From the IMG/VR virus record IMGVR_UViG_3300043436_004480, positions 1 through 64,000 of that record: a DNA stretch of 64,000 nt; one strand, written 5' to 3'. The DNA is from a virus. Shown here piece by piece: positions 10,301 to 41,087 of this stretch (the stretch's first letter is position 1; each line of letters begins with the position of its first letter). Position numbers and translations under genes: made by a program. The notes beneath the pieces were generated by a model. It was given only the letters and a program-made list of their open reading frames with translations, searched no databases and was not told where the DNA came from.

Positions 10301-12082
10301 CGGAAAACTTGGTATAAATGATGAAATATCTCTTGAATTTCCGATTACTTCTACAACTTCGTTCTCAAGATTTAAGTTTTTTAGTACTGCACCTACTGGA
10401 TTTCTATTAAAAAGAACTTGAAAATACGAATTTCCAAGATAACCTTTGTTATAACAAGCAGAAATTGCGGTTTTCAAAAGTCCATTTATATCACTTCTTA
10501 GGAACAAGGGTGTGTTTCTAAACCTGTTCCAGTTTTCTACTACACTTATTTGTCTAAATTCTTTTTTGTTTTCAGGAAGATAAAATTCTTCCCAGTTATC
10601 TTTCAGTTTTGAATTTATTTCATATATCTTTGGAAACTCTGAAAAGTTACTTGACGGAAAAGAACTCATTACAAAACCAGTAAATACCATATACAGATAA
10701 TACCGATAATTCAGAGAACTTTGTAACTGTTCATTACTAAGATTTTCCAGATCAAACGCTATAAATTCATTATGCAAGAAGTTTTCTTTTGATGAATTCT
10801 TTAATAAATGTCTTACTAAAGTTATACATTTTCTTGTTTCTTCATCTCCGGATTCAAAAATCTCTTTTATTAAAGCTGATGGACAAAAAGAAGTTGCATC
10901 TGACAAGTGATATGAAAAGAGTGAACTTATTACAGAATAAGGAATATAAAAGTCTTGATTATCTACTTTTAATGATAGACTTTTTGACTTGTGATAAATT
11001 CCATTTAGAAACTCCAATTCTTCTACTGTCGAAAAACCAATTATTTTTGGCAAATCTACATGAAATGTATAAAGTCTGATTTTAGAATGCTTTAGCTTAT
11101 CCAGAATAAAAAACGAGTATTCTAACAATACAGATTTTATTTTGTTTGCTATTACTTCTACACTTTCTTCTGTAAGCTTTATACTTTCTCTGCTTGGGTT
11201 TGGTAATAATTCACCAATTCCAAATCTGAGGAACATATATGGAATTGAAGCAAAAGATTTAAGCAAGTCTGAATAATAACCTTTTTGTTTTGAAACGTCT
11301 ATCTGGTACAATACATCGCCTAATAAGATATTAAGTCTGTGTGTATAAGAAAAAGAAGATTCGTGTTGTATTCCTTCTAAACAACGATGAAATACCGGAA
11401 AAAACAAGTATTCCTTGGTATTTATAAAATCTACTGCCTGATTAAAAGGACTTTCAAATATATTTGAAGTTATGTTAGGAAAGCCAAACAAAGTTCTGAA
11501 TGCGACTTCAGAAAACTTCTTTGCATCATCTCTATCTGTTAAAGGAATTCTAATTGTAGTTCCTTCTTCTTCAAATGGTGCTTCTTCTGTTTCTTGTAAA
11601 ACTAAAGAGGGAATATTCTTTTCATTTTTGTAGAAAAGATAAATTCTTTTTTTGTCTTCTCCTAAACATTTTGTTTCAATGTAGAAAGAATCTGTATAAG
11701 CAAAAGGAGATTTTGAACCAATTCCAAAACCTCCTATCATTTCATTTGAATTTCTTTTTGTGCTATCAAAATATTGAAGATAATTATCCCACATAAAAGA
11801 TTCCGACATACCTTTGCCATAATCTTTTACAGTTAAAAAATAATCATCTTCTGCCGAAGTAACCATTACTTCAACATTTTTTGTTGCATTGTTATCTTTA
11901 TTTGCATCTACTGCATTAGATGTTATTTCTCTAAGAATTGCAGATATTGGATCTTGATAGAGTCTTTCAGAAAGAGTTGATAATGCGCTTGCTAGATCTT
12001 TTGATGATATTCCAGCTTCTTTTGCATTTACATCTATTAGTCCTTCTTGTTCAGAATGGGAGGTTTGAATATCCGTTTTCAT
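7334..12082 (-). CDS. rIIA: rIIA-like protein with N-terminal GHKL ATPase (1582 aa)
   Basis: LYQDPISAILREITSNAVDA, VKDYGKGMS, STKR..IGGFGIGSKSPFAY, PSRESI. Confidence 0.85.
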   Translation of the reverse strand: MKTDIQTSHSEQEGLIDVNAKEAGISSKDLASALSTLSERLYQDPISAILREITSNAVDANKDNNATKNVEVMVTSAEDDYFLTVKDYGKGMSESFMWDNYLQYFDSTKRNSNEMIGGFGIGSKSPFAYTDSFYIETKCLGEDKKRIYLFYKNEKNIPSLVLQETEEAPFEEEGTTIRIPLTDRDDAKKFSEVAFRTLFGFPNITSNIFESPFNQAVDFINTKEYLFFPVFHRCLEGIQHESSFSYTHRLNILLGDVLYQIDVSKQKGYYSDLLKSFASIPYMFLRFGIGELLPNPSRESIKLTEESVEVIANKIKSVLLEYSFFILDKLKHSKIRLYTFHVDLPKIIGFSTVEELEFLNGIYHKSKSLSLKVDNQDFYIPYSVISSLFSYHLSDATSFCPSALIKEIFESGDEETRKCITLVRHLLKNSSKENFLHNEFIAFDLENLSNEQLQSSLNYRYYLYMVFTGFVMSSFPSSNFSEFPKIYEINSKLKDNWEEFYLPENKKEFRQISVVENWNRFRNTPLFLRSDINGLLKTAISACYNKGYLGNSYFQVLFNRNPVGAVLKNLNLENEVVEVIGNSRDISSFIPSFPSGISIIDDKELSFIGSWKQQFEYLRSAIHSCFSRNNLQTVQAGVFRKGFLERNYAFNSKKSFVELFNKKLDTYEILKDSKLADLFVCYLNLLPEILFRTPYLLSDVLSLSYIETQNFSFSTVNRSDFYESIEQDLIGSFNQQISQYPTISSDPSEARKDLANILRDRAVTNSDLLRLKRKFYVNKYALKNYMSAFALLVNTQNRFYSKKYIDKICNTYGIVNTPEEEKNNLETAFSQLKLKVKEALEIEAEKQRLEKSSLEAARLEFIKERKKREAKEIIPVEKTNVKCLYLDTPTQSSIALKKNSSFVETLETFIKKVDDKDFTKKAFLAEKEPNYFLYCLPEEVERVKDLVNTFQFVYTSYQFVHYKESISLSGGYKDSSSYYKDFFNSIFVLNEEQIYYLETEEAEFAKNLFHFDKFIFTVHPFFTMQLYTFLKHDELIRDYSNFSKFIARPFEKLRKTVPRLQYHNDFVYPVRDQKIIGAVPNEKYSDSKIYLNNGMNHSNFKNEVLFTQPYHNVVEKHQYNKKLLETLHVLIYDPYTPDRFSSNWLYGNVTNLKKLVSSFNLHIDYMYFKDPAKSDYYGGYHSKVRTSFCPNLDFINEELIYPDAIITKELGDLYLDMNRISKNGHSRYSYRPAINDNVNDLAELSGKMKLFFLEIANAYNVYTALGGICLTEEEFENSLTELKYALSVTEIHYDAYLYLHKLCKMIDKTYKHINSDLSTLSSFIMMDGSIQEKEFTKALTNERYIHRKQKFVLSERHVSNFLPEYSKLIDYNSQKSIIKINHKDNPLFPQTEGAEKIHVFEFYCENISLNAKKRSMYGASVYKTLGNASSYEAKVEEFLKNLSVECTFNLKNAYIDLNKKLLFPLIETKSVGFSNSDIYNCSLTNDYEFTDKMIKRNYTDGSLIKVVYFKGLEAKQKYLKSLKEGDFNKYANRVVKRDDFFYNLSNLDSSIFQRRKTAFSQNAHNTTGVFKNLHRSNLIPTL

Positions 12083-33975: not shown

Positions 33976-34311
33976 TTATTTAATATTACTTTTCAATATT
34001 GAATAATGGTCAGCTTTTACTATACAACTCTTTTCTAGTTCTTCAATAACAAAAAGACTTTCATCTTTTGTTACTGTTCCATCTAGTAAACTTTTTTTGT
34101 ATATCTGAATTAACTCTATGTCAGATTCATTTAATGAATCTACTACATAAAGCATGTTTTTTTGTTTTGTAGAACTATGGTCTTGCTGCTGGAAATCTTG
34201 GTGGATAATCTCTATTTTTGAGACTGACCAAATTCCTATTATCAACAATATGATTAGGAGTCCCAGTTCTAAAATCCTCAGATTCTTTATTTGATCTTTG
34301 TTGTAAGTCAT
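33976..34311 (-). CDS. Single-pass membrane hypothetical protein
   Basis: ILELGLLIILLIIGIWSV. Confidence 0.6.
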   Translation of the reverse strand: MTYNKDQIKNLRILELGLLIILLIIGIWSVSKIEIIHQDFQQQDHSSTKQKNMLYVVDSLNESDIELIQIYKKSLLDGTVTKDESLFVIEELEKSCIVKADHYSILKSNIK

Positions 34312-35478: not shown

Positions 35479-35746
35479 AAGGAAGGATGTGTTTCTGCAC
35501 AATACACATCAAATTGTTGTGAAATAAGAACTTTTTAAAATACTTAAAGTCTCTCCGCAATTTTCTATTAATAAGGACTTCTGCAACGACTTCGCAGCAT
35601 TTGGAATCTTATGAAAATAGAAATAATTAACTAAGGAAGTTAATACATGATTTTTACTTCTGCACGATACCTCTTACGTTATGAACTAGTCATCGACTTG
35701 AGTTACGCCCCACATGTTTGTCATTTCTGAAGAATTTCTGTAAAAT

Positions 35747-35775
35747 AAAAAACTCTCTGATTTCTCAGAGAGTTT
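35747..35775 (-). terminator. Terminator of the tmRNA coding piece
   Basis: AAACTCTCTGA-GAAA-TCAGAGAGTTTTTT. Confidence 0.8.
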
Positions 35776-36050
35776 ATTCACCGTTTTAGTAGGTTTCACT
35801 CGTTTAGCTTATGCTGCAACTGCAACACGAGAAAACATAGGTACTGATTTGCCGTTTATGGCTTTGCTTTCCTTTCTCAGCGATTTTTCATACTGTCAAA
35901 ACCGGTCTTCCCCAATTTGCAGAAATGCATCTGCACAGTACTAAAGCGACTGGTTAGCTACAACAAAAGTTGAGTGGAGAAGTAGGGATTCGAACCCTAG
36001 TCCAACATGAATTCTACTTCGATACAAGCGGAACGCATCGTAAAAGTATG
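35750..36050 (-). ncRNA. ssrA: Circularly permuted (two-piece) tmRNA
   Basis: Acceptor piece ...GAC TAGGG TTCGAAT CCCTA CTTCTCC A ends at 35975 and lies upstream of the coding piece, which starts GGGGAAG ACCGGTTTTGAC at 35913. G3-U70 pair present. Tag frame 35853-35809 reads GKSVPMFSRVAVAA*. The 5' end of the acceptor piece is approximate. Confidence 0.9.
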
Positions 36051-36109
36051 CAGAGTTATTTAACTATGCAACTTTAAATTTTAAATCTTTTCCCAGAAAA
36101 AGAAAAAGA

Positions 36110-36499
36110 TTAGGGCAACTGTTGATTTTCAACATCTGACTCCTCGAACTTGATTATTATATCAAACTCAATTTGTAGTTCTGCACCAGTTAACATTTGT
36201 TCTTCTGGAGTCCAAGATATATACACTTCACTACCTATGAATATGTTATTCATAACAAGTTCAGGAATTAATATGTATCTATGTTGCCACTTAACTGTAT
36301 TTTCATCATAAGTAAAGAAATCTATTTGTAAAGCTTCATTTTTTGAAGCATTATCTAAGTAATCTTTATCTATGTTGAGAAAACACTTGTTTTGCAATTC
36401 TATTCTTAAACTTGGTGCAATTTCTTCAAGTTTTATACCTTTTATAAAGCTTGTTTCCTCTGACCAATTTTGTGTTTTGCACTCTCGTGTTATTTTCAT
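36110..36499 (-). CDS. Hypothetical protein
   Basis: 129-aa ORF. Confidence 0.65.
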   Translation of the reverse strand: MKITRECKTQNWSEETSFIKGIKLEEIAPSLRIELQNKCFLNIDKDYLDNASKNEALQIDFFTYDENTVKWQHRYILIPELVMNNIFIGSEVYISWTPEEQMLTGAELQIEFDIIIKFEESDVENQQLP

Positions 36500-36500
36500 A

Positions 36501-36659
36501 CTAATCTGAATTCATTTTGTACAAACCGGCTATTCCTAGTAAAGATATAATTCCAAAAGCATAGCTTTTTCCAAAGTTTGATTCTAAAACACCTTCTATG
36601 CAAAGAAATAAATCTATTCCTATTAATACGCACATGATAATACTTCCTATTTTTTTCAT
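36501..36659 (-). CDS. Small membrane protein with two hydrophobic segments
   Basis: MKKIGSIIMCVLIGIDLFLCIEG...AFGIISLLGIAGLYK. Confidence 0.6.
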   Translation of the reverse strand: MKKIGSIIMCVLIGIDLFLCIEGVLESNFGKSYAFGIISLLGIAGLYKMNSD

Positions 36660-36666
36660 AGATGTA

Positions 36667-36807
36667 TTATTTTCTACAACCTGTACCCATAGTACAAGCT
36701 GGTCTGTTTCCATACTTTTTATAAGCAGTATGTCGCTTTTGTGCATTATTCTGAGTTGCACAACTCGTTATTGCTATTAAAAGCAATAATGCAATTACTG
36801 TTTTCAT
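36667..36807 (-). CDS. Small lipoprotein (46 aa, not in the ORF track)
   Basis: MKTVIALLLLIAITS-CATQ..., a signal peptide with a lipobox. Confidence 0.65.
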   Translation of the reverse strand: MKTVIALLLLIAITSCATQNNAQKRHTAYKKYGNRPACTMGTGCRK

Positions 36808-36947
36808 GCTGTTTCAGTTTTAATTTTAAATGTTGTTGTTTTCTGTATATCCTGAAATAAAATAATCCAGAGCCATAGACTCTGGAATATTAACTACATA
36901 TTATACAAAATTATGAACACATCATTTCGATTACCCGAAATGTAGTT

Positions 36948-37032
36948 GCTGCGTACACAGGATTCGAACCTGCTTTGTTCAGACAACACGAGTTTCACGT
37001 GCGCAAACAAAATCACCATTAGAAATACGCAG
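36948..37032 (-). ncRNA. tRNA-like RNA without a canonical anticodon arm
   Basis: 8-bp acceptor CTGCGTAT/GTACGCAG, D-like loop TAATGGT, long central hairpin, T-arm GCAGG-TTCGAAT-CCTGT. Confidence 0.7.
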
Positions 37033-37294
37033 TTTAATTTATTAAACTTTCTTTGCAGTATCTTAGCAACAGAATAATAAATTAGTAAGTTTCTCTGGTT
37101 CTTCCCCTTTCTCTTTGAAACTTACAAATGTCTGAGATTGGAGGTTCTTGGTTTAAACAAGTCGAAATACGGGATTCATAGCCCGCACTTCAACTCAAAG
37201 TATGTTTACTCTTAATAAAATCACATAGACGGAAACATACAAAGTTTCTATGCAAAGTTTTACTCAATTACAATAGTTGTAATTATTCATTTGA

Positions 37295-37753
37295 CTAATC
37301 ATGTCCAAATATATCTTCTTCAAGATAAGACTTGACAGGCTCCTGAGTTTTTTCTTTTTCTGGGACATCTTTCATAGAATCAATCCTTGAAAGTAAGTTC
37401 TTTACATCAACTTTTTGACGAAGATCAGAATTTTCTTTTGCCAAGTTATCAATTTGACTTTCTAAACTTCCTATCAATTGAAGACGAAAAGCATTTTTAT
37501 TTACTTCGTTTGCAAGATTTCTATTTATTCTTTCCGTTTCTTTATTCACTTGATTTACAAGTAGATAGCAAAGTAGTATCAAACCTAAAACAGAACTCAA
37601 TAACAAAAGAGTCAAGAGTATAATTTCAAGTTTAATTAAGTTAGTTCCAAGAACTATCCAGAAGATTAAACATGTTGCTACAATTGACAATGCAATTATA
37701 GCTAGAATTTGCGTGAATGCAGTAGCTGCAATTTTATTGATTTTGGTATTCAT
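37295..37753 (-). CDS. Membrane protein with two hydrophobic segments and a coiled coil
   Basis: Two hydrophobic segments followed by heptads. Confidence 0.7.
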   Translation of the reverse strand: MNTKINKIAATAFTQILAIIALSIVATCLIFWIVLGTNLIKLEIILLTLLLLSSVLGLILLCYLLVNQVNKETERINRNLANEVNKNAFRLQLIGSLESQIDNLAKENSDLRQKVDVKNLLSRIDSMKDVPEKEKTQEPVKSYLEEDIFGHD

Positions 37754-37762
37754 AATTTTAAT

Positions 37763-37786
37763 TCTGTTAGCCTATACACAGAAAGG
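37763..37786 (-). repeat. Leader pseudoknot, type I, copy A
   Basis: CCT-T-TCTGT-GTAT-AGG-CTA-ACAGA, 9 nt before ATG. Confidence 0.7.
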
Positions 37787-37809
37787 TGTTTTGGTTGGTA
37801 AATGAGCAA

Positions 37810-38259
37810 TTACGATAATAGTAATTGCTCTAATTTGTACTTTGATTCTTTTATTAACATTTCTAAAATGTCAACATGACCAATTAAATATGCAGTTTCA
37901 TTTCCAATATGACCTTCTGCACGTTTTTTGTATTCTGCAATTTTACTTTCATAAAATTTGATGTTCTCTTCATGAACATTTTTAATATTATGAATATTTT
38001 GCATCTTTTCATCTTGAAGTGCATCCCAAGCATACAAACTTTCATCTGCAAGTTTGTTAATATCTTGGAATGTTTCCCTAATCATAAAGCACATTCCTAT
38101 GAATGCGCCAAATCCTAGAGATATTAGAGCGTAACCCATAATTACTACGGATTCCAACTTGTTTTCTGTAAATTTGTTTCCTATTATACAAGAAACGAAA
38201 ACTAACAAAAACATTGTTAGTATGGCAAATATATTGCCTTTGATTTTACTTGAATTCAT
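37810..38259 (-). CDS. Membrane protein with two hydrophobic segments
   Basis: Two N-terminal hydrophobic segments. Confidence 0.7.
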   Translation of the reverse strand: MNSSKIKGNIFAILTMFLLVFVSCIIGNKFTENKLESVVIMGYALISLGFGAFIGMCFMIRETFQDINKLADESLYAWDALQDEKMQNIHNIKNVHEENIKFYESKIAEYKKRAEGHIGNETAYLIGHVDILEMLIKESKYKLEQLLLS

Positions 38260-38270
38260 AATTTTAAAGT

Positions 38271-38294
38271 TCGATTGACCTATGTATCGAGAGA
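38271..38294 (-). repeat. Leader pseudoknot, type I, copy B
   Basis: TCT-C-TCGAT-ACAT-AGG-TCA-ATCGA, 11 nt before ATG. Confidence 0.7.
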
Positions 38295-38302
38295 TATTAT
38301 TT

Positions 38303-38665
38303 TTAAAGTTTTGTTAAGCTTCTACATCCGATGATTTCACCTTCGGAATTTCTTACTGTTTCTGCAACGATGTAAAAATCATTGCGTTCGGGATAATACG
38401 TTTTTATTGATTGTGCAGCAATTTGCGACACAACATAAATCGTATTTTCCTTTTCTTCTGGGATGAAATCTGGTTCTCCGAAAGACGTTTTAGCCATAAC
38501 TGGAATTCCGAATGTTCCTCTACTTATGAAAGTTTCTTGAACATATGGATTCTGCTTTGCTCTAACAATTCCGTCACTTTCAATCTCTAATGCGATGACA
38601 TCTACGTCATCTATTTGTGCATAAAATCTTAGTTTATGCGGAGTGAAATTTTTTATTTCAGTCAT
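38303..38665 (-). CDS. Conserved phage protein (NxTPH family)
   Basis: IKNFTPH..VVS..VRNSEGEIIGCRSL; start moved to the ATG after the leader motif. Confidence 0.7.
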   Translation of the reverse strand: MTEIKNFTPHKLRFYAQIDDVDVIALEIESDGIVRAKQNPYVQETFISRGTFGIPVMAKTSFGEPDFIPEEKENTIYVVSQIAAQSIKTYYPERNDFYIVAETVRNSEGEIIGCRSLTKL

Positions 38666-38675
38666 AATTTTAAAT

Positions 38676-38699
38676 TCGATTAACCTATACATCGAGAGG
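38676..38699 (-). repeat. Leader pseudoknot, type I, copy C
   Basis: CCT-C-TCGAT-GTAT-AGG-TTA-ATCGA, 10 nt before ATG. Confidence 0.7.
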
Positions 38700-38708
38700 T
38701 TTTGAGAT

Positions 38709-39062
38709 TTATAATTTGTTGTTACTACGGATCATGAATTTTCCGTATGCCATTAGAGTTTCTCCTGCTAATTGAGAGTAAACTGAATCGGGACACATGT
38801 ACGCATCAGTTAGAAATTCTACTTCTACTAAAGTTTCAGGGTTAGTTCCTAATTCTAGTGCATTATCAACGTGCTTTTTTAGCTCTGCTAAAGTTAAATG
38901 TTTACTTTTACTTTGAACTTCTTCAAGTTCAGCAAAAGCCAACTTTTCTTTCAACTGATTCATTTCTGAAGTCATCTGAGTTATCAATTCTTCGCCAGTT
39001 GAACCAGCGATGTCTGCTGCGTAACCTTTAATACGCATTTTTAATTCTTCTACCTTTGTCAT
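38709..39062 (-). CDS. Hypothetical protein
   Basis: 117-aa ORF. Confidence 0.7.
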   Translation of the reverse strand: MTKVEELKMRIKGYAADIAGSTGEELITQMTSEMNQLKEKLAFAELEEVQSKSKHLTLAELKKHVDNALELGTNPETLVEVEFLTDAYMCPDSVYSQLAGETLMAYGKFMIRSNNKL

Positions 39063-39072
39063 AATTTTGAAA

Positions 39073-39094
39073 TGGTTGCCTTTACACCAAAAGG
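39073..39094 (-). repeat. Leader pseudoknot, type I, copy D
   Basis: CCT-TT-TGGT-GTAA-AGG-CA-ACCA, 10 nt before ATG. Confidence 0.65.
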
Positions 39095-39330
39095 TTAATT
39101 TTGAATTTTAAATTTGACGGAATGTGCAGTCACGCACTGTGAATAAGAACTTGTTCTGTTGATTAGACTACAAACAATTTGTTTCTTACATCTGCACATT
39201 CATTTTAACAGAGGCCAAGATATAATATGCAAGTTGACAAAAGTTAATCAGACTTTTGTCCAATGTTATTCTTTCTGCACTATATCTTATTTATGCTCCA
39301 CGCATACCTCTGCTAAAACTGTCAAACTTT

Positions 39331-39440
39331 GTCACAATGAGAAGATTCGAACTTCTAAAGTTTTTCGGATTAGAATCTTGTCTAATCTTACTAAGGAATC
39401 TACCGATTTCCTCAACTATTCCACCGACTGGACATTGCGA
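39331..39440 (-). ncRNA. tRNA-like RNA with a branched domain in place of the anticodon arm
   Basis: Acceptor TCGCAATG/CATTGTGA, D-arm TCC-AGTCGGT-GGA, T-arm AGAAG-TTCGAAT-CTTCT. Confidence 0.75.
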
Positions 39441-39590
39441 ACAAGTAGTTTAAAATTACGACGTATATCAAATTCATTATTTGATATTTACTTAGGTCGT
39501 GTCTATTTTTCACCCTATAACAACAAAATAGACTAAATTTGTTACTGGGATGCTTTCTTACGAAAGTTTTCAGGAAAAGGTACTATCATA

Positions 39591-39647
39591 AACAGTTTAA
39601 CAACTTGTTGAGGTTCTGAAAAAGCAGTTTTAAAACTTGCTTAGGTT
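39591..39647 (-). repeat. Type II motif, two tandem copies
   Basis: AACCTAAGCAAGTTTTAAAACTGCTT and AACCTCAACAAGTTGTTAAACTGTT. Confidence 0.65.
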
Positions 39648-39676
39648 TTGAAATTAACGGTACTATTATAAACGAA

Positions 39677-40240
39677 TTATTTAAATTCGTTTATAAACTC
39701 TTGAGAGCAACGGCAAATTTCTAATTCTGTATCATCTCCTCTATTTAAATAAAACAGAATGTCAAAATTATCCACTTTGATCACTAATTCATAAGAACCT
39801 TGACCAGAAGCAATCATGAAAAATTCAAGATTTCTTTTGTTAAGTTTGAATTTTTCTATTTCTCTTTTTAAGGTAGAAAATACAAGTTCAGCATCTTCTC
39901 TGCTAAGAATCTTTGATTCATTATCACAAAGAAATTGTTCACGTTCTGCAAGTTCTCGTTCTGTTTTAGAAAACATAGGACGAATTCTTTCGTCTATATA
40001 TTCTGCATGCTCTTCATCATGTTTATTAGCATAATGAATATAATCTGTTGAATTGCTGAATTCATACAGAGGACCATTTTCGTCATTCTTTATGTATAAC
40101 AAAATGTCGTTACCGTTATCATGAACAAGATATTGTTCATTTACTAATTTGAAAGCATATCTAGCTTCTGTGTTAGCAATTATTTCTTCTAAATTAGGAA
40201 ATAATTTAATTGCAATGTCCTTTGTGATTAACCTAGGCAT
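39677..40240 (-). CDS. Hypothetical early protein, possible internal duplication
   Basis: 187-aa ORF. Confidence 0.7.
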   Translation of the reverse strand: MPRLITKDIAIKLFPNLEEIIANTEARYAFKLVNEQYLVHDNGNDILLYIKNDENGPLYEFSNSTDYIHYANKHDEEHAEYIDERIRPMFSKTERELAEREQFLCDNESKILSREDAELVFSTLKREIEKFKLNKRNLEFFMIASGQGSYELVIKVDNFDILFYLNRGDDTELEICRCSQEFINEFK

Positions 40241-40316
40241 AACTCTGAATGCAGCTTCTCATCTGAGAATTTCGACTCCTTTAAGTCTTATTATACTGCT
40301 ACTTTTTACTTTTAGA

Positions 40317-40362
40317 TATTATTGAAAGATTCGAACTTTCTGATCCACCGACTGGAATAATA
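40317..40362 (-). ncRNA. Minimal 46-nt tRNA-like element (acceptor, D and T arms only)
   Basis: TATTATT-CC AGTCGGT GG-ATCA-GAAAG TTCGAAT CTTTC-AATAATA. Confidence 0.7.
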
Positions 40363-40364
40363 AG

Positions 40365-40390
40365 GAACAGTTTTTAAACTTGTTCAGGTT
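40365..40390 (-). repeat. Type II motif, third copy
   Basis: AACCTGAACAAGTTTAAAAACTGTTC immediately after a stop codon. Confidence 0.65.
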
Positions 40391-40720
40391 TTAATCTGCT
40401 AACCAGTCGTATTCAGATTTATCGAAATAGTCTGGATCACTAATATCTTTGTTATCGAATGCTTCTAGTTCTTCTATGCTTTTTCTTAACGAAGGATGCA
40501 CTCCAGTATTTTCTTGCCACTCGACTATCTGCTCATCAGTAAGTTCAACTTCATTTCTAAGTTGTGCAAGAAATTTATTTCTATCGTCGTCTGTAAGGAT
40601 TTCTCCATACATATTCTCAAAAATTTCGACGTTGTCTTCATGATAAAGACGTTCTGCTTCTCTGAAAGGAATTTTTAACTCTAAAGAAGCGTATGCGATT
40701 AATTCGTTTTGAAGGTTCAT
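40391..40720 (-). CDS. Acidic early protein
   Basis: About 29 D/E versus 10 K/R in 109 aa. Confidence 0.7.
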   Translation of the reverse strand: MNLQNELIAYASLELKIPFREAERLYHEDNVEIFENMYGEILTDDDRNKFLAQLRNEVELTDEQIVEWQENTGVHPSLRKSIEELEAFDNKDISDPDYFDKSEYDWLAD

Positions 40721-40856
40721 TGCTTTGAAGTTTTATGGTGATAATCTATGAATAATATACCTGACAATTCCAAGACAAAATTAATTGTGATGGAAATGTT
40801 CAAGGTTTTCAATTAGTATGATGAAGACTAATTGATTTGGCAAAAAGAATTGGTTG

Positions 40857-41087
40857 CTAAAATGCAACCAATTCCATCATAATTCTCCCGTCTGGAAGAA
40901 CCATTTCTACTTGCTTGATTTCTTTGCAAGTAAATTCAAAGGTCTCTCCAGCTTCTGCTGGGCCTTCAAACCGCATGAGACCAGGAAGTTTCCTGAATCT
41001 GCCAGTAGCGACTTCGGTGCTTATACTCCACCACGAGTTTTCGCCTGACTTGGTCAGGCAAACGAAAGTTGCTTTAACTTTGTTCAT
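40857..41087 (-). CDS. Hypothetical protein, first ORF of the leftward early block
   Basis: AAATTATG start MNKVKATF; 76 aa. Confidence 0.6.
   Translation of the reverse strand: MNKVKATFVCLTKSGENSWWSISTEVATGRFRKLPGLMRFEGPAEAGETFEFTCKEIKQVEMVLPDGRIMMELVAF

Follow-up and report, generated by a model that had tools for sequence, protein, structure and literature searches.

The window analysed here is a stretch of 64,000 nt (positions 1 to 64,000 of IMG/VR virus record IMGVR_UViG_3300043436_004480) from the 93.7-kb genome of a lake crAss-like phage. In the early region of this phage, which also carries a Hatchet ribozyme and a permuted tmRNA, four successive minus-strand genes are each headed by a copy of one short motif of ~26 nt. 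From the upstream end of the array, the features are:

39073..39096, minus strand: motif copy 1, AA-CCT-tt-TGGT-GTAA-AGG-ca-ACCA; arms CCT 39094-39092 and AGG 39081-39079, stem 2 TGGT/ACCA; 10-nt A/U spacer to ATG 39062; 55.9 bits
38709..39062, minus strand: gene behind copy 1; 117 aa, no family match
38676..38701, minus strand: motif copy 2, AA-CCT-c-TCGAT-GTAT-AGG-tta-ATCGA; arms CCT 38699-38697 and AGG 38686-38684, stem 2 TCGAT/ATCGA; 10-nt spacer to ATG 38665; 71.1 bits
38303..38665, minus strand: gene behind copy 2; 120 aa, match to phrog_30542 of unknown function
38271..38296, minus strand: motif copy 3, TCT-c-TCGAT-ACAT-AGG-tca-ATCGA; arms TCT 38294-38292 and AGG 38281-38279, stem 2 TCGAT/ATCGA; 11-nt spacer to ATG 38259; 56.9 bits
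37810..38259, minus strand: gene behind copy 3; 149 aa, N-terminal hydrophobic segments, no family match
37763..37788, minus strand: motif copy 4, CA-CCT-t-TCTGT-GTAT-AGG-cta-ACAGA; arms CCT 37786-37784 and AGG 37773-37771, stem 2 TCTGT/ACAGA, extendable to 6 bp; 9-nt spacer to ATG 37753; 67.9 bits
37295..37753, minus strand: gene behind copy 4; 152 aa, N-terminal half hydrophobic, no family match

The four proteins show no meaningful similarity when compared with one another. A blastn search of positions 36000-41000 against cultured phages returned no match, and a protein-anchored search for close relatives recovered only ~30% identity for the exonuclease and nothing for the 120-aa protein. 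The public runs listed for this phage are all lake DNA metagenomes, with no RNA runs among them.

A sequence-only reading of the window had described four pseudoknots at near-fixed distances from consecutive start codons, and both the positions and the spacing are confirmed. The four copies exceed chance expectation; a covariance model of the motif picks out these four sites and no others in the 93.7-kb genome, with E values from 5e-8 to 6e-11 against 1.5 for the next-best match. The loose CCT/AGG pseudoknot pattern alone turns up ~35 times by chance, so the 3 bp of stem 1 add no statistical support by themselves. Two elements of the earlier consensus required adjustment. The loop piece GTAT is present in two copies and is replaced by ACAT in copy 3 and by GTAA in copy 1, where the variant permits CCUU/AAGG pairing. 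The trailing TAAAATTATG, which had been included in the motif, is placed outside it because it is the general start context of ~11 minus-strand genes. The immediate surroundings of the copies also differ. Copy 1 follows ~600 nt without any ORF, and the stop of the preceding gene lies 9 nt 5’ of the CCT of copy 2. The start assigned by the ORF lister to the gene behind copy 2, ATG 38692, falls within the motif itself (GATGTATAGG) and is for that reason probably not the true start.

A wider covariance and pattern search showed that the motif is not local to this phage; it belongs to a very large family, found in more than 100 non-redundant places. Carriers include Crassvirales (e.g., the lake phage and Kolpuevirus of Bacteroides cellulosilyticus), other tailed phages of Flavobacterium, including Flavobacterium columnare, and of Riemerella, ssDNA Microviridae, and prophage and defence-island cassettes in Bacteroidota genomes. 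In two Microviridae genomes, the copies immediately precede start codons that are annotated or evident. Almost all bacterial contigs with the motif are from Bacteroidota. The earlier assignment of the hosts to this group, which initiates translation without Shine-Dalgarno (SD) pairing, is supported. The motif is nonetheless sparse: bacterial genomes of 2.5-5.4 Mb contain only 0-4 copies each, and only 1-5 genes per genome bear it. Arrays of copies occur in the lake crAss-like phage (four), in phage L040 (four), and in L088 (five). The motif is also shown to be independent of gene family. The 109 downstream proteins (median 121 aa) fall into 96 unrelated clusters, and their genes include GmrSD, AAA_15, DUF2779, PD-(D/E)XK, NADAR, and HNH endonuclease. 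As it is used by viruses that have no proteins in common, its partner is likely a conserved host component rather than a phage-encoded one.

The family form of the motif is UARA-ACCU-y-[5 nt]-GUAU-AGG-yyA-[5 nt’]-(8-10 nt)-AUG, in which the stem sequence is free and the hairpin loop of 9-10 nt (GUAUAGGyyA) is nearly invariant. The family alignment was collected by patterns that fixed ACCU and GUAUAGG, and the invariance of these two segments is therefore partly by construction; further copies recovered by the covariance model also retain both. The compensatory changes that the sequence-only reading had seen in stem 2 are borne out on this large alignment. Both-sided changes occur at four of the five pairs, in 88 cells, and 29 distinct stems are represented; 95% of cells are paired, and none of 500 shuffles reached the observed score. 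In a separate test that makes no structure assumption, using a pattern that leaves the stem free, all four free stem pairs were complementary in 56 of 115 non-redundant matches. Shuffling of the partners gave a mean of 13.3 fully complementary matches and a maximum of 24 (2000 shuffles). Judged by this covariation, the hairpin is under selection. Folding energy contributes little: the hairpin alone is predicted at -3 to -5 kcal/mol (-5.0 kcal/mol for copy 4), with z-scores near 0, and none of the shuffle z-scores of the four copies is significant. The case is built on covariation and not on folding energy, and a thermodynamically weak hairpin of this kind would be expected to gain extra stabilization from a knot or from a partner.

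The alignment also agrees with the earlier description of a structured element, specific to one strand and linked to start codons, in that its distance to the ATG is fixed and its distance to the upstream stop is variable. The motif always lies on the strand of the gene that it precedes. Of 96 copies, 60 have a spacer of 8-10 nt between hairpin and ATG and 77 have one of 7-12 nt, whereas the upstream stop may lie anywhere from -4 to -46 or be absent. Approximately 15-20% of copies are located 12-27 nt from the ATG, as in Flavobacterium phage FCV-1 and Riemerella phage GDF21, and some of these carry an intervening SD-like AGGAG. Given these distant copies, a fixed docking geometry is not obligatory.

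The second helix, stem 1, pairs ACCU with AGG(U). Two of its pairs never vary, one varies one-sidedly, and no both-sided change was observed. An H-type pseudoknot of ~26 nt, formed by this crossing stem, is thus plausible rather than proven, as ACCU and AGG are complementary yet invariant and may each be read as sequence instead of helix. Every variant observed preserves the pairing: UCU/AGG, as in copy 3 (a G.U pair), ACCU/GGG, and CCUU/AAGG in copy 1; a variant in L088, possibly GCC/GGC, could also pair. A scan with stem 1 left free to vary was swamped by chance hairpins. The loops of the putative knot are short (1 nt and 2-3 nt), and the 1-nt linker covaries with the fourth stem pair (47/3/3/54, p=8e-23; p=0.012 when counted by distinct stems), with both classes coexisting within single genomes. 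This coupling hints at a compact fold. Directly 5’ of the knot, a single-stranded UARA is conserved.

We found no description of this motif in the literature, and Rfam 15 covariance models, including preQ1-I and other small riboswitches, gave only weak, chance-level matches to unrelated families. The nearest catalogued Bacteroidota leader pseudoknots are DUF805b (RF02914) and DUF805 (RF03081), two motifs of unknown function from the set of Weinberg et al. 2017 (PMC5737381). They are likewise small H-type leader pseudoknots of Bacteroidota located upstream of start codons, and genuine DUF805b copies contain a conserved ...GUAGG segment paired to CC(N). Their position is comparable as well, 18-25 nt before the AUG, against 15-18 nt for the AGG of the motif. 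The topologies, however, are mirror images. In the DUF805b copies that we read, the variable hairpin comes first, ACC lies in its loop, and AGAGUAGG(N)A follows 3’ of the hairpin; in the present motif, ACCU precedes the hairpin and AGG lies in the loop. DUF805b is also common in chromosomes (14 copies in one Paludibacter genome), where the phage-enriched motif is rare. The DUF805b model (35.6-bit threshold) recovers genuine copies in Bacteroidota genomes and matches neither the four copies at E<=10 nor nine motif-rich loci at E<=1. The DUF805 model (51.1-bit threshold), run on the whole genome, has its sole match at 2242-2317 (E 6.6), and it likewise misses the four copies and the nine motif-rich loci.

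In behavior, the motif resembles the SAS/ESAS elements of Cluster K mycobacteriophages, short conserved elements located shortly before the starts of some non-structural genes (PMC3203893). These also precede unrelated gene families in one orientation and are nearly absent from host genomes, and a role in translation initiation is proposed for them (PMC3203893). The resemblance is of behavior only. SAS is a 13-nt sequence (GGGATAGGAGCCC) with an SD core, lies 3-7 bp before the start in an SD-using host, and is confined to one phage cluster, and the 17-bp inverted repeats of ESAS are conserved in sequence. The motif differs from SAS in both sequence and spacing, is defined by structure, lacks functional SD spacing, and spans virus realms. 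Similarly, the PeSL cassettes of T4-type phages are ~40-50 nt repeats between small variable ORFs, comprised of a sigma-70 early promoter and a terminator-like stem-loop, and their repetition is thought to drive shuffling (PMC2839356, PMC4122927). The motif contains neither the promoter box nor a U-tract, its stem is weak, and its spacing to the AUG is fixed; an early promoter joined to a terminator-like stem-loop was not found. Nor were the RYYYAAC / GTTRRRY cores of integron attC sites, which lie 3’ of a cassette ORF and go with an IntI integrase; the motif keeps its distance to the ATG that follows rather than to the upstream ORF. Finally, the E. coli rpsO (S15) pseudoknot, the T4 gene 32 and gene 43 operators, and the MS2 hairpin are found at the initiation region and act on 30S binding; each binds one specific protein, occurs once per genome, and overlaps the SD and AUG. 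The motif is likewise a small pseudoknot or hairpin, but it is multi-copy and lies upstream of the AUG.

Several other candidates were rejected. The anatomy of the motif does not fit a type III toxin-antitoxin RNA, a CRISPR repeat, an intrinsic terminator, or a tRNA mimic (ARAGORN). A readthrough or frameshift stimulator is inconsistent with downstream ORFs that are out of frame (stop-to-ATG distances of 46, 46, and 59 nt) and with the varying stop distance. UARA does not act as a stop codon; it is not the stop of the upstream gene, and it keeps no frame with the AUG (18/16/15 over the three frames). Loop complementarity to 16S rRNA was also dismissed, as CCUAUAC is absent from Bacteroides and Chryseobacterium 16S. 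AGG is unchanged in hosts with an alternative anti-SD (Chryseobacterium copies), an observation that is uninformative because wobble pairing remains available to AGG.

As our best explanation, held tentatively and at not quite even confidence, we propose that the motif is a portable cis-acting mRNA leader whose target is translation initiation by an SD-blind host ribosome. In Bacteroidia, the anti-SD is sequestered by the ribosome, which depends on leaders that are A-rich and unstructured (PMC7797042, PMC9976891, PMC13000457). In the proposed leader, the loop AGG(U) of a 5-bp, free-sequence hairpin would probably pair back to the invariant ACCU located 1 nt 5’ of the hairpin. The end of the knot, 8-10 nt before the AUG, would then occupy the site of the SD/anti-SD helix on the 30S platform, where it may help or gate binding of the SD-blind ribosome to a short, A/U-rich initiation region, with a conserved host component as the putative partner. 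Within the mobilome of Bacteroidota, the element would head cassettes of accessory genes and move together with the gene behind it. Formation of stem 1, RNA-level action on the ribosome, and activation as opposed to repression are the parts of this model that we infer. Some observations weigh against a translational leader: compaction of the genome around a minimal initiation region could by itself keep the spacer tight, use by 1-5 genes per genome suits a regulatory or stability role equally, and the copies 12-27 nt from the ATG, some with AGGAG between, sit awkwardly with it. We consider it doubtful that the motif goes further and serves as an mRNA-borne ribosome-recruiting device for a ribosome that lacks SD use. 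Here, the hairpin would take the SD/anti-SD site. An invariant mini-helix, ACCU(C/U):AGGU, would imitate in sequence an SD bound by the 16S tail (…CACCUCCUU) and would dock on the 30S platform beside the bS21/bS18/bS6 pocket, in which the genuine tail is sequestered.

Alternatively, the motif may be a signal for RNA processing or stability, a reading that we regard as unlikely. Host RNases would cut the polycistronic message beside the knot, for example in the UARA or the A/U spacer, and the knot would cap the downstream 5’ end or the upstream 3’ end against exonucleases, giving selected accessory genes their own mRNA half-life. The conserved, single-stranded UARA could be the cleavage site, a host RNase would account for use by unrelated viruses, and the ribozyme and permuted tmRNA lie in the same early region; copies far from the ATG are also better accommodated than under ribosome docking. 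Yet the structure is weak relative to known exonuclease blocks, and it is the distance to the ATG, not to the upstream stop, that is tightly constrained. Somewhat less probable still is an operator or sensor, in which the invariant loop and 5’ arm would bind either a small ligand, like a riboswitch the size of preQ1-I, or a conserved RNA-binding protein of the host, and switch translation of mobile accessory genes with host state. Aptamers and protein operators typically combine invariant loop or junction nucleotides with a stem that covaries freely, as seen here, and the location beside the initiation region, the restriction to selected genes, and the occurrence in several virus classes all fit. 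Against this, the genes behind the motif share no function, unlike those controlled by riboswitches; no riboswitch or leader family of Rfam matches, and no candidate protein is known.

We assign a low probability, beneath those of the RNA-level readings, to an element that functions as DNA, either as a cassette-exchange joint (PeSL/attC-like), a hairpin priming or nicking signal in ssDNA, or an unconventional promoter starting near AGG. The suggestion of a recombination joint in the sequence-only reading is supported only indirectly, in that the motif stands at the head of unrelated cassettes, frequently as part of an array, and is almost the only DNA shared by the dissimilar phages L040 and L110; comparison of these two phages revealed no mosaic breakpoints. 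Homing-type HNH endonuclease and defence genes among the downstream genes, the presence of the motif in ssDNA microviruses, and the resemblance of TATAGG to the initiation region of T7-type promoters also speak for a DNA element. On the other hand, recombination or priming would not need strict orientation and spacing to a downstream ATG, and stem covariation is unexpected for a duplex promoter or a protein-bound palindrome. Hairpin promoters of the N4 type have a 5-7-bp stem and a 3-nt loop, whereas the loop is 9-10 nt in all copies. There are likewise no attC cores and no recombinase or polymerase common to these virus classes. Bacteroidota sigma-A promoters would place TAnnTTTG at -7 and TTTG at -33, and no such arrangement at a fixed place was seen; across the 40-nt upstream regions of 115 copies, TAnnTTTG appears six times, at scattered positions, and it never appears inside the motif. 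A promoter is therefore unlikely, as the host -7 box is absent upstream.

In practical terms, the motif could serve as a marker of mobile accessory-gene cassettes and could aid the calling of true starts, since an ATG within it misleads ORF callers; it is possibly also of use as a portable expression part in Bacteroides engineering. Cultured systems with the motif include Flavobacterium columnare phages, Riemerella phages, and Kolpuevirus on Bacteroides cellulosilyticus, and a purified translation system is available for F. johnsoniae. If the motif were indeed a ribosome-recruiting device, mobile genes of any Bacteroidota virus would gain context-independent or privileged initiation. How Bacteroidia choose start codons without SD pairing is an active question (PMC7797042, PMC9976891, PMC13000457), as is how the abundant phages of Bacteroidia, crAss-like phages included, compete for ribosomes. 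A 26-nt structured leader at the position of the missing SD offers a concrete, mutable handle on both.

The record comes from a lake metagenome and, to judge from its terminase, portal, major head protein and gene layout, belongs to a crAss-like phage. In it, the same leader arrangement stands ahead of each of four consecutive small genes. Window genes around this cluster lie on the minus strand, and the motif copies are numbered in the direction of transcription:

Copy 1, before ATG 39062, minus strand: arms UGGU/ACCA; loop piece GUAA
Copy 2, before ATG 38665, minus strand: arms UCGAU/AUCGA
Copy 3, before ATG 38259, minus strand: arms UCGAU/AUCGA; UCU replaces CCU; loop piece ACAU
Copy 4, before ATG 37753, minus strand: arms UCUGU/ACAGA

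From 5' to 3', the motif consists of (A)CCU, a linker of 1-2 nt, a 4-6-nt arm, GUAU, AGG, 2-3 nt ending in A, and the complementary arm, followed by an A/U spacer of 9-11 nt to the AUG. The sequence-only reading had described four structured copies at this distance from consecutive starts; these are confirmed and greatly extended below, and a covariance model of the motif matches the 93.7-kb record at these four places only (E 5e-8 to 6e-11). The GTAT loop piece of that reading holds for two copies and fails in copies 1 and 3. No ORF precedes copy 1, and for the other three the upstream stop lies 8, 9 or 23 nt from the motif; it is thus the start codon, and not the stop before it, to which the element is tied. 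Since the four downstream proteins are mutually unrelated (two have hydrophobic N-terminal segments), the repeats are not remnants of gene duplication.

The trailing UAAAAUUAUG, previously counted as part of the motif, is common to about 11 minus-strand genes and hence not specific to the motif-headed four. The minus-strand starts at 34311, 34624, 31782 and 24374 also have this context, and the hairpins upstream of them, some terminator-like (e.g., UCAACCAA...UUGGUUGA ahead of ATG 34311), are outside the motif family. The motif itself includes an ATG (within GATGTATAGG). In copy 2 it is in frame (window 38690-38692, minus strand), so that ORF listers begin the gene at 38692 rather than 38665; in the annotation of phage hattifnatt, a CDS is drawn across the motif copy. 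The internal ATG may be a general reason why genes of these phages are called with starts too far upstream.

A first IMG/VR pattern scan recovered the complete motif in four further viral contigs. A second pattern that left the stem free, ACCT-N5-TGTATAGG-N1-2-AAY, matched at least 116 stretches. Among the matches listed, all four free stem positions were complementary in 56 of 115 non-redundant matches, against a mean of 13.3 and a maximum of 24 when 3' arms were re-dealt among matches (2000 shuffles), and the 115 copies carried 29 distinct stems. In an alignment of 85 model matches, four of five stem pairs changed on both sides, in 88 cells, with 95% of cells paired, which bears out on the family the compensatory changes originally noticed in the window. 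The consensus is U-A-R-A / A-C-C-U / y / N-N-N-R-U / G-U-A-U-A-G-G / (y)y-A / A-Y-N-N-N. Among the matches listed, 60 of 96 copies have an AUG spacer of 8-10 nt, and 77 of 96 have one of 7-12 nt; a minority lie 12-27 nt away, some followed by an SD-like AGGAG. Arrays recur in other viral contigs, with four copies at consecutive small genes in L040, five in L088, five in L039/L107, and three each in L110 and L054.

The search beyond the window that had been called for places the motif in many Bacteroidota phages, Microviridae and bacterial genomes. By BLAST, which covered cultured phages, carriers are Flavobacterium columnare phages (FCV-1 and the FCOV-F and V series), Flavobacterium phages hattifnatt and snusmum, Riemerella phages, a crAss-like Kolpuevirus of Bacteroides cellulosilyticus, and gut-sample ssDNA Microviridae; the copy in Capybara microvirus Cap1_SP_66 takes up the whole interval from the major capsid gene to the next annotated gene. 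A prokaryote scan of one genome per species gave, among the matches listed, 57 that form the hairpin, nearly all from Bacteroidota (Paludibacteraceae, Prevotella, Bacteroides, Odoribacter, Chryseobacterium and others). Motif-positive whole bacterial genomes hold 0-4 copies per 2.5-5.4 Mb, versus four in this 94-kb phage.

At the level of sequence, the stem-2 hairpin is established. The crossing stem of ACCU with AGG, and hence a pseudoknot, is complementary in every copy and is a candidate only, not established, because ACCU and AGG almost never vary (partly by construction, the search patterns having fixed both) and covariation cannot be counted. The rare stem-1 variants all remain pairable (UCU/AGG, ACCU/GGG and, in copy 1, CCUU/AAGG), a divergent L088 copy has a possible GCC/GGC pairing, the connecting loops of 1 nt and 2-3 nt have the short lengths that such a knot requires, and the hairpin by itself is weak (-3 to -5 kcal/mol, not above shuffled sequence); pairable variants, short loops and weak lone hairpin speak for a knot. 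So does a coupling that the sequence-only reading missed: the 1-nt linker is C with an A-U fourth stem pair and U with G-C (47/3/3/54, p=8e-23; by distinct stems 9/3/2/9, p=0.012), and both classes occur together within single genomes, this phage among them. A single-nucleotide loop, in crossing the stem's deep groove, would adjoin that fourth pair. That ACCU and GUAUAGG stay constant next to a stem that varies freely suggests a conserved partner that also recognises their sequence.

No Rfam 15 family matched the motif, and no description of it was found in Rfam 15 or the literature searched. The Bacteroidota leader models DUF805b (RF02914) and DUF805 (RF03081) do not match the window's copies. 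Genuine DUF805b copies in Bacteroidota chromosomes have the mirror arrangement, in which ACC lies inside the loop of a leading hairpin and AGAGUAGG follows that hairpin, 18-25 nt ahead of the AUG. Because DUF805b and the present motif both have a small GUA(N)AGG:CC(U) helix at a comparable distance from the AUG, they may represent one theme in two variants. There is no Bacteroidota promoter box (TAnnTTTG) and no U-tract 3' of the hairpin, whose loop exceeds the length expected of N4-type hairpin promoters. The UARA does not supply the upstream gene's stop, nor does it share a reading frame with the AUG; given the reading frames, the next gene cannot be reached by readthrough or frameshifting.

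Other RNA elements lie near the cluster:

Window 35645-35734, minus strand: Hatchet ribozyme (RF02678), 61.4 bits
Window 35718-36064, minus strand: circularly permuted tmRNA (RF04321), 59.1 bits; ARAGORN tag peptide GKSVPMFSRVAVAA
Window 40365-40390, 39622-39647 and 39591-39615, minus strand: sister motif, AACCU-n-[stem]-AGUU-UAAAA(A)C-[stem']

The tmRNA is directly upstream of the Hatchet, and both are just downstream of the four genes on the same strand. The sister motif has the 5' AACCU and knot architecture in common with the start-codon motif, but its crossing stem is AAC/GUU; its copies follow stop codons or lie within a 600-nt non-coding stretch, one adjoining a tRNA-like element. Elsewhere, the L040 contig has a hammerhead type I-like match (11416-11464, plus strand; 31.5 bits, gathering score 34), and in Bacteroides neonati a FopS-family sRNA (RF04319; L164:5829-5895, minus strand; 77.8 bits) immediately follows a motif-headed 61-aa gene on the opposite strand.

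What has to be explained is a strict strand and AUG spacing, with any gene behind, in viruses without common proteins, together with a restriction to Bacteroidota, a phylum whose ribosomes hide their anti-SD and initiate on leaders that are A-rich and unstructured (PMC7797042, PMC9976891, PMC13000457). An mRNA leader that would act via the host ribosome explains this most economically, a reading which we hold tentatively. The knot would end near -10, the place of an SD/anti-SD helix, and its effect on initiation would be enhancing, insulating or gating. The copies 12-27 nt from the AUG, some with AGGAG, argue against a rigid docking geometry and leave room for three alternatives. A processing or stability element, toward which the adjoining ribozyme, tmRNA and tRNA-like elements also point, is unlikely; an operator for a host factor or ligand is rather more doubtful, and a DNA-level cassette joint is improbable. 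The first interpretation, which had spanned most of these roles, is partly supported.

In Bacteroides the 16S tail reads ...CACCUCCUUU, which is similar to the ACCUC/U arm, and for this reason the motif might be an SD/anti-SD mimic supplied in cis, a quite unlikely reading by analogy. The 16S tail of Chryseobacterium caseinilyticum (L279) reads ...ACAUCUCAUUUU, the alternative anti-SD that PMC7797042 describes for Chryseobacteria, and Chryseobacterium motif copies keep ACCU/AGG.

The genes behind the motif are diverse. Among the matches listed, 109 downstream proteins (median 121 aa) form 96 clusters, and those on bacterial contigs include GmrSD, AAA_15, DUF2779, PD-(D/E)XK, NADAR and HNH endonuclease families; the cassettes that the element heads are thus accessory, defence or mobile ones without distinction.
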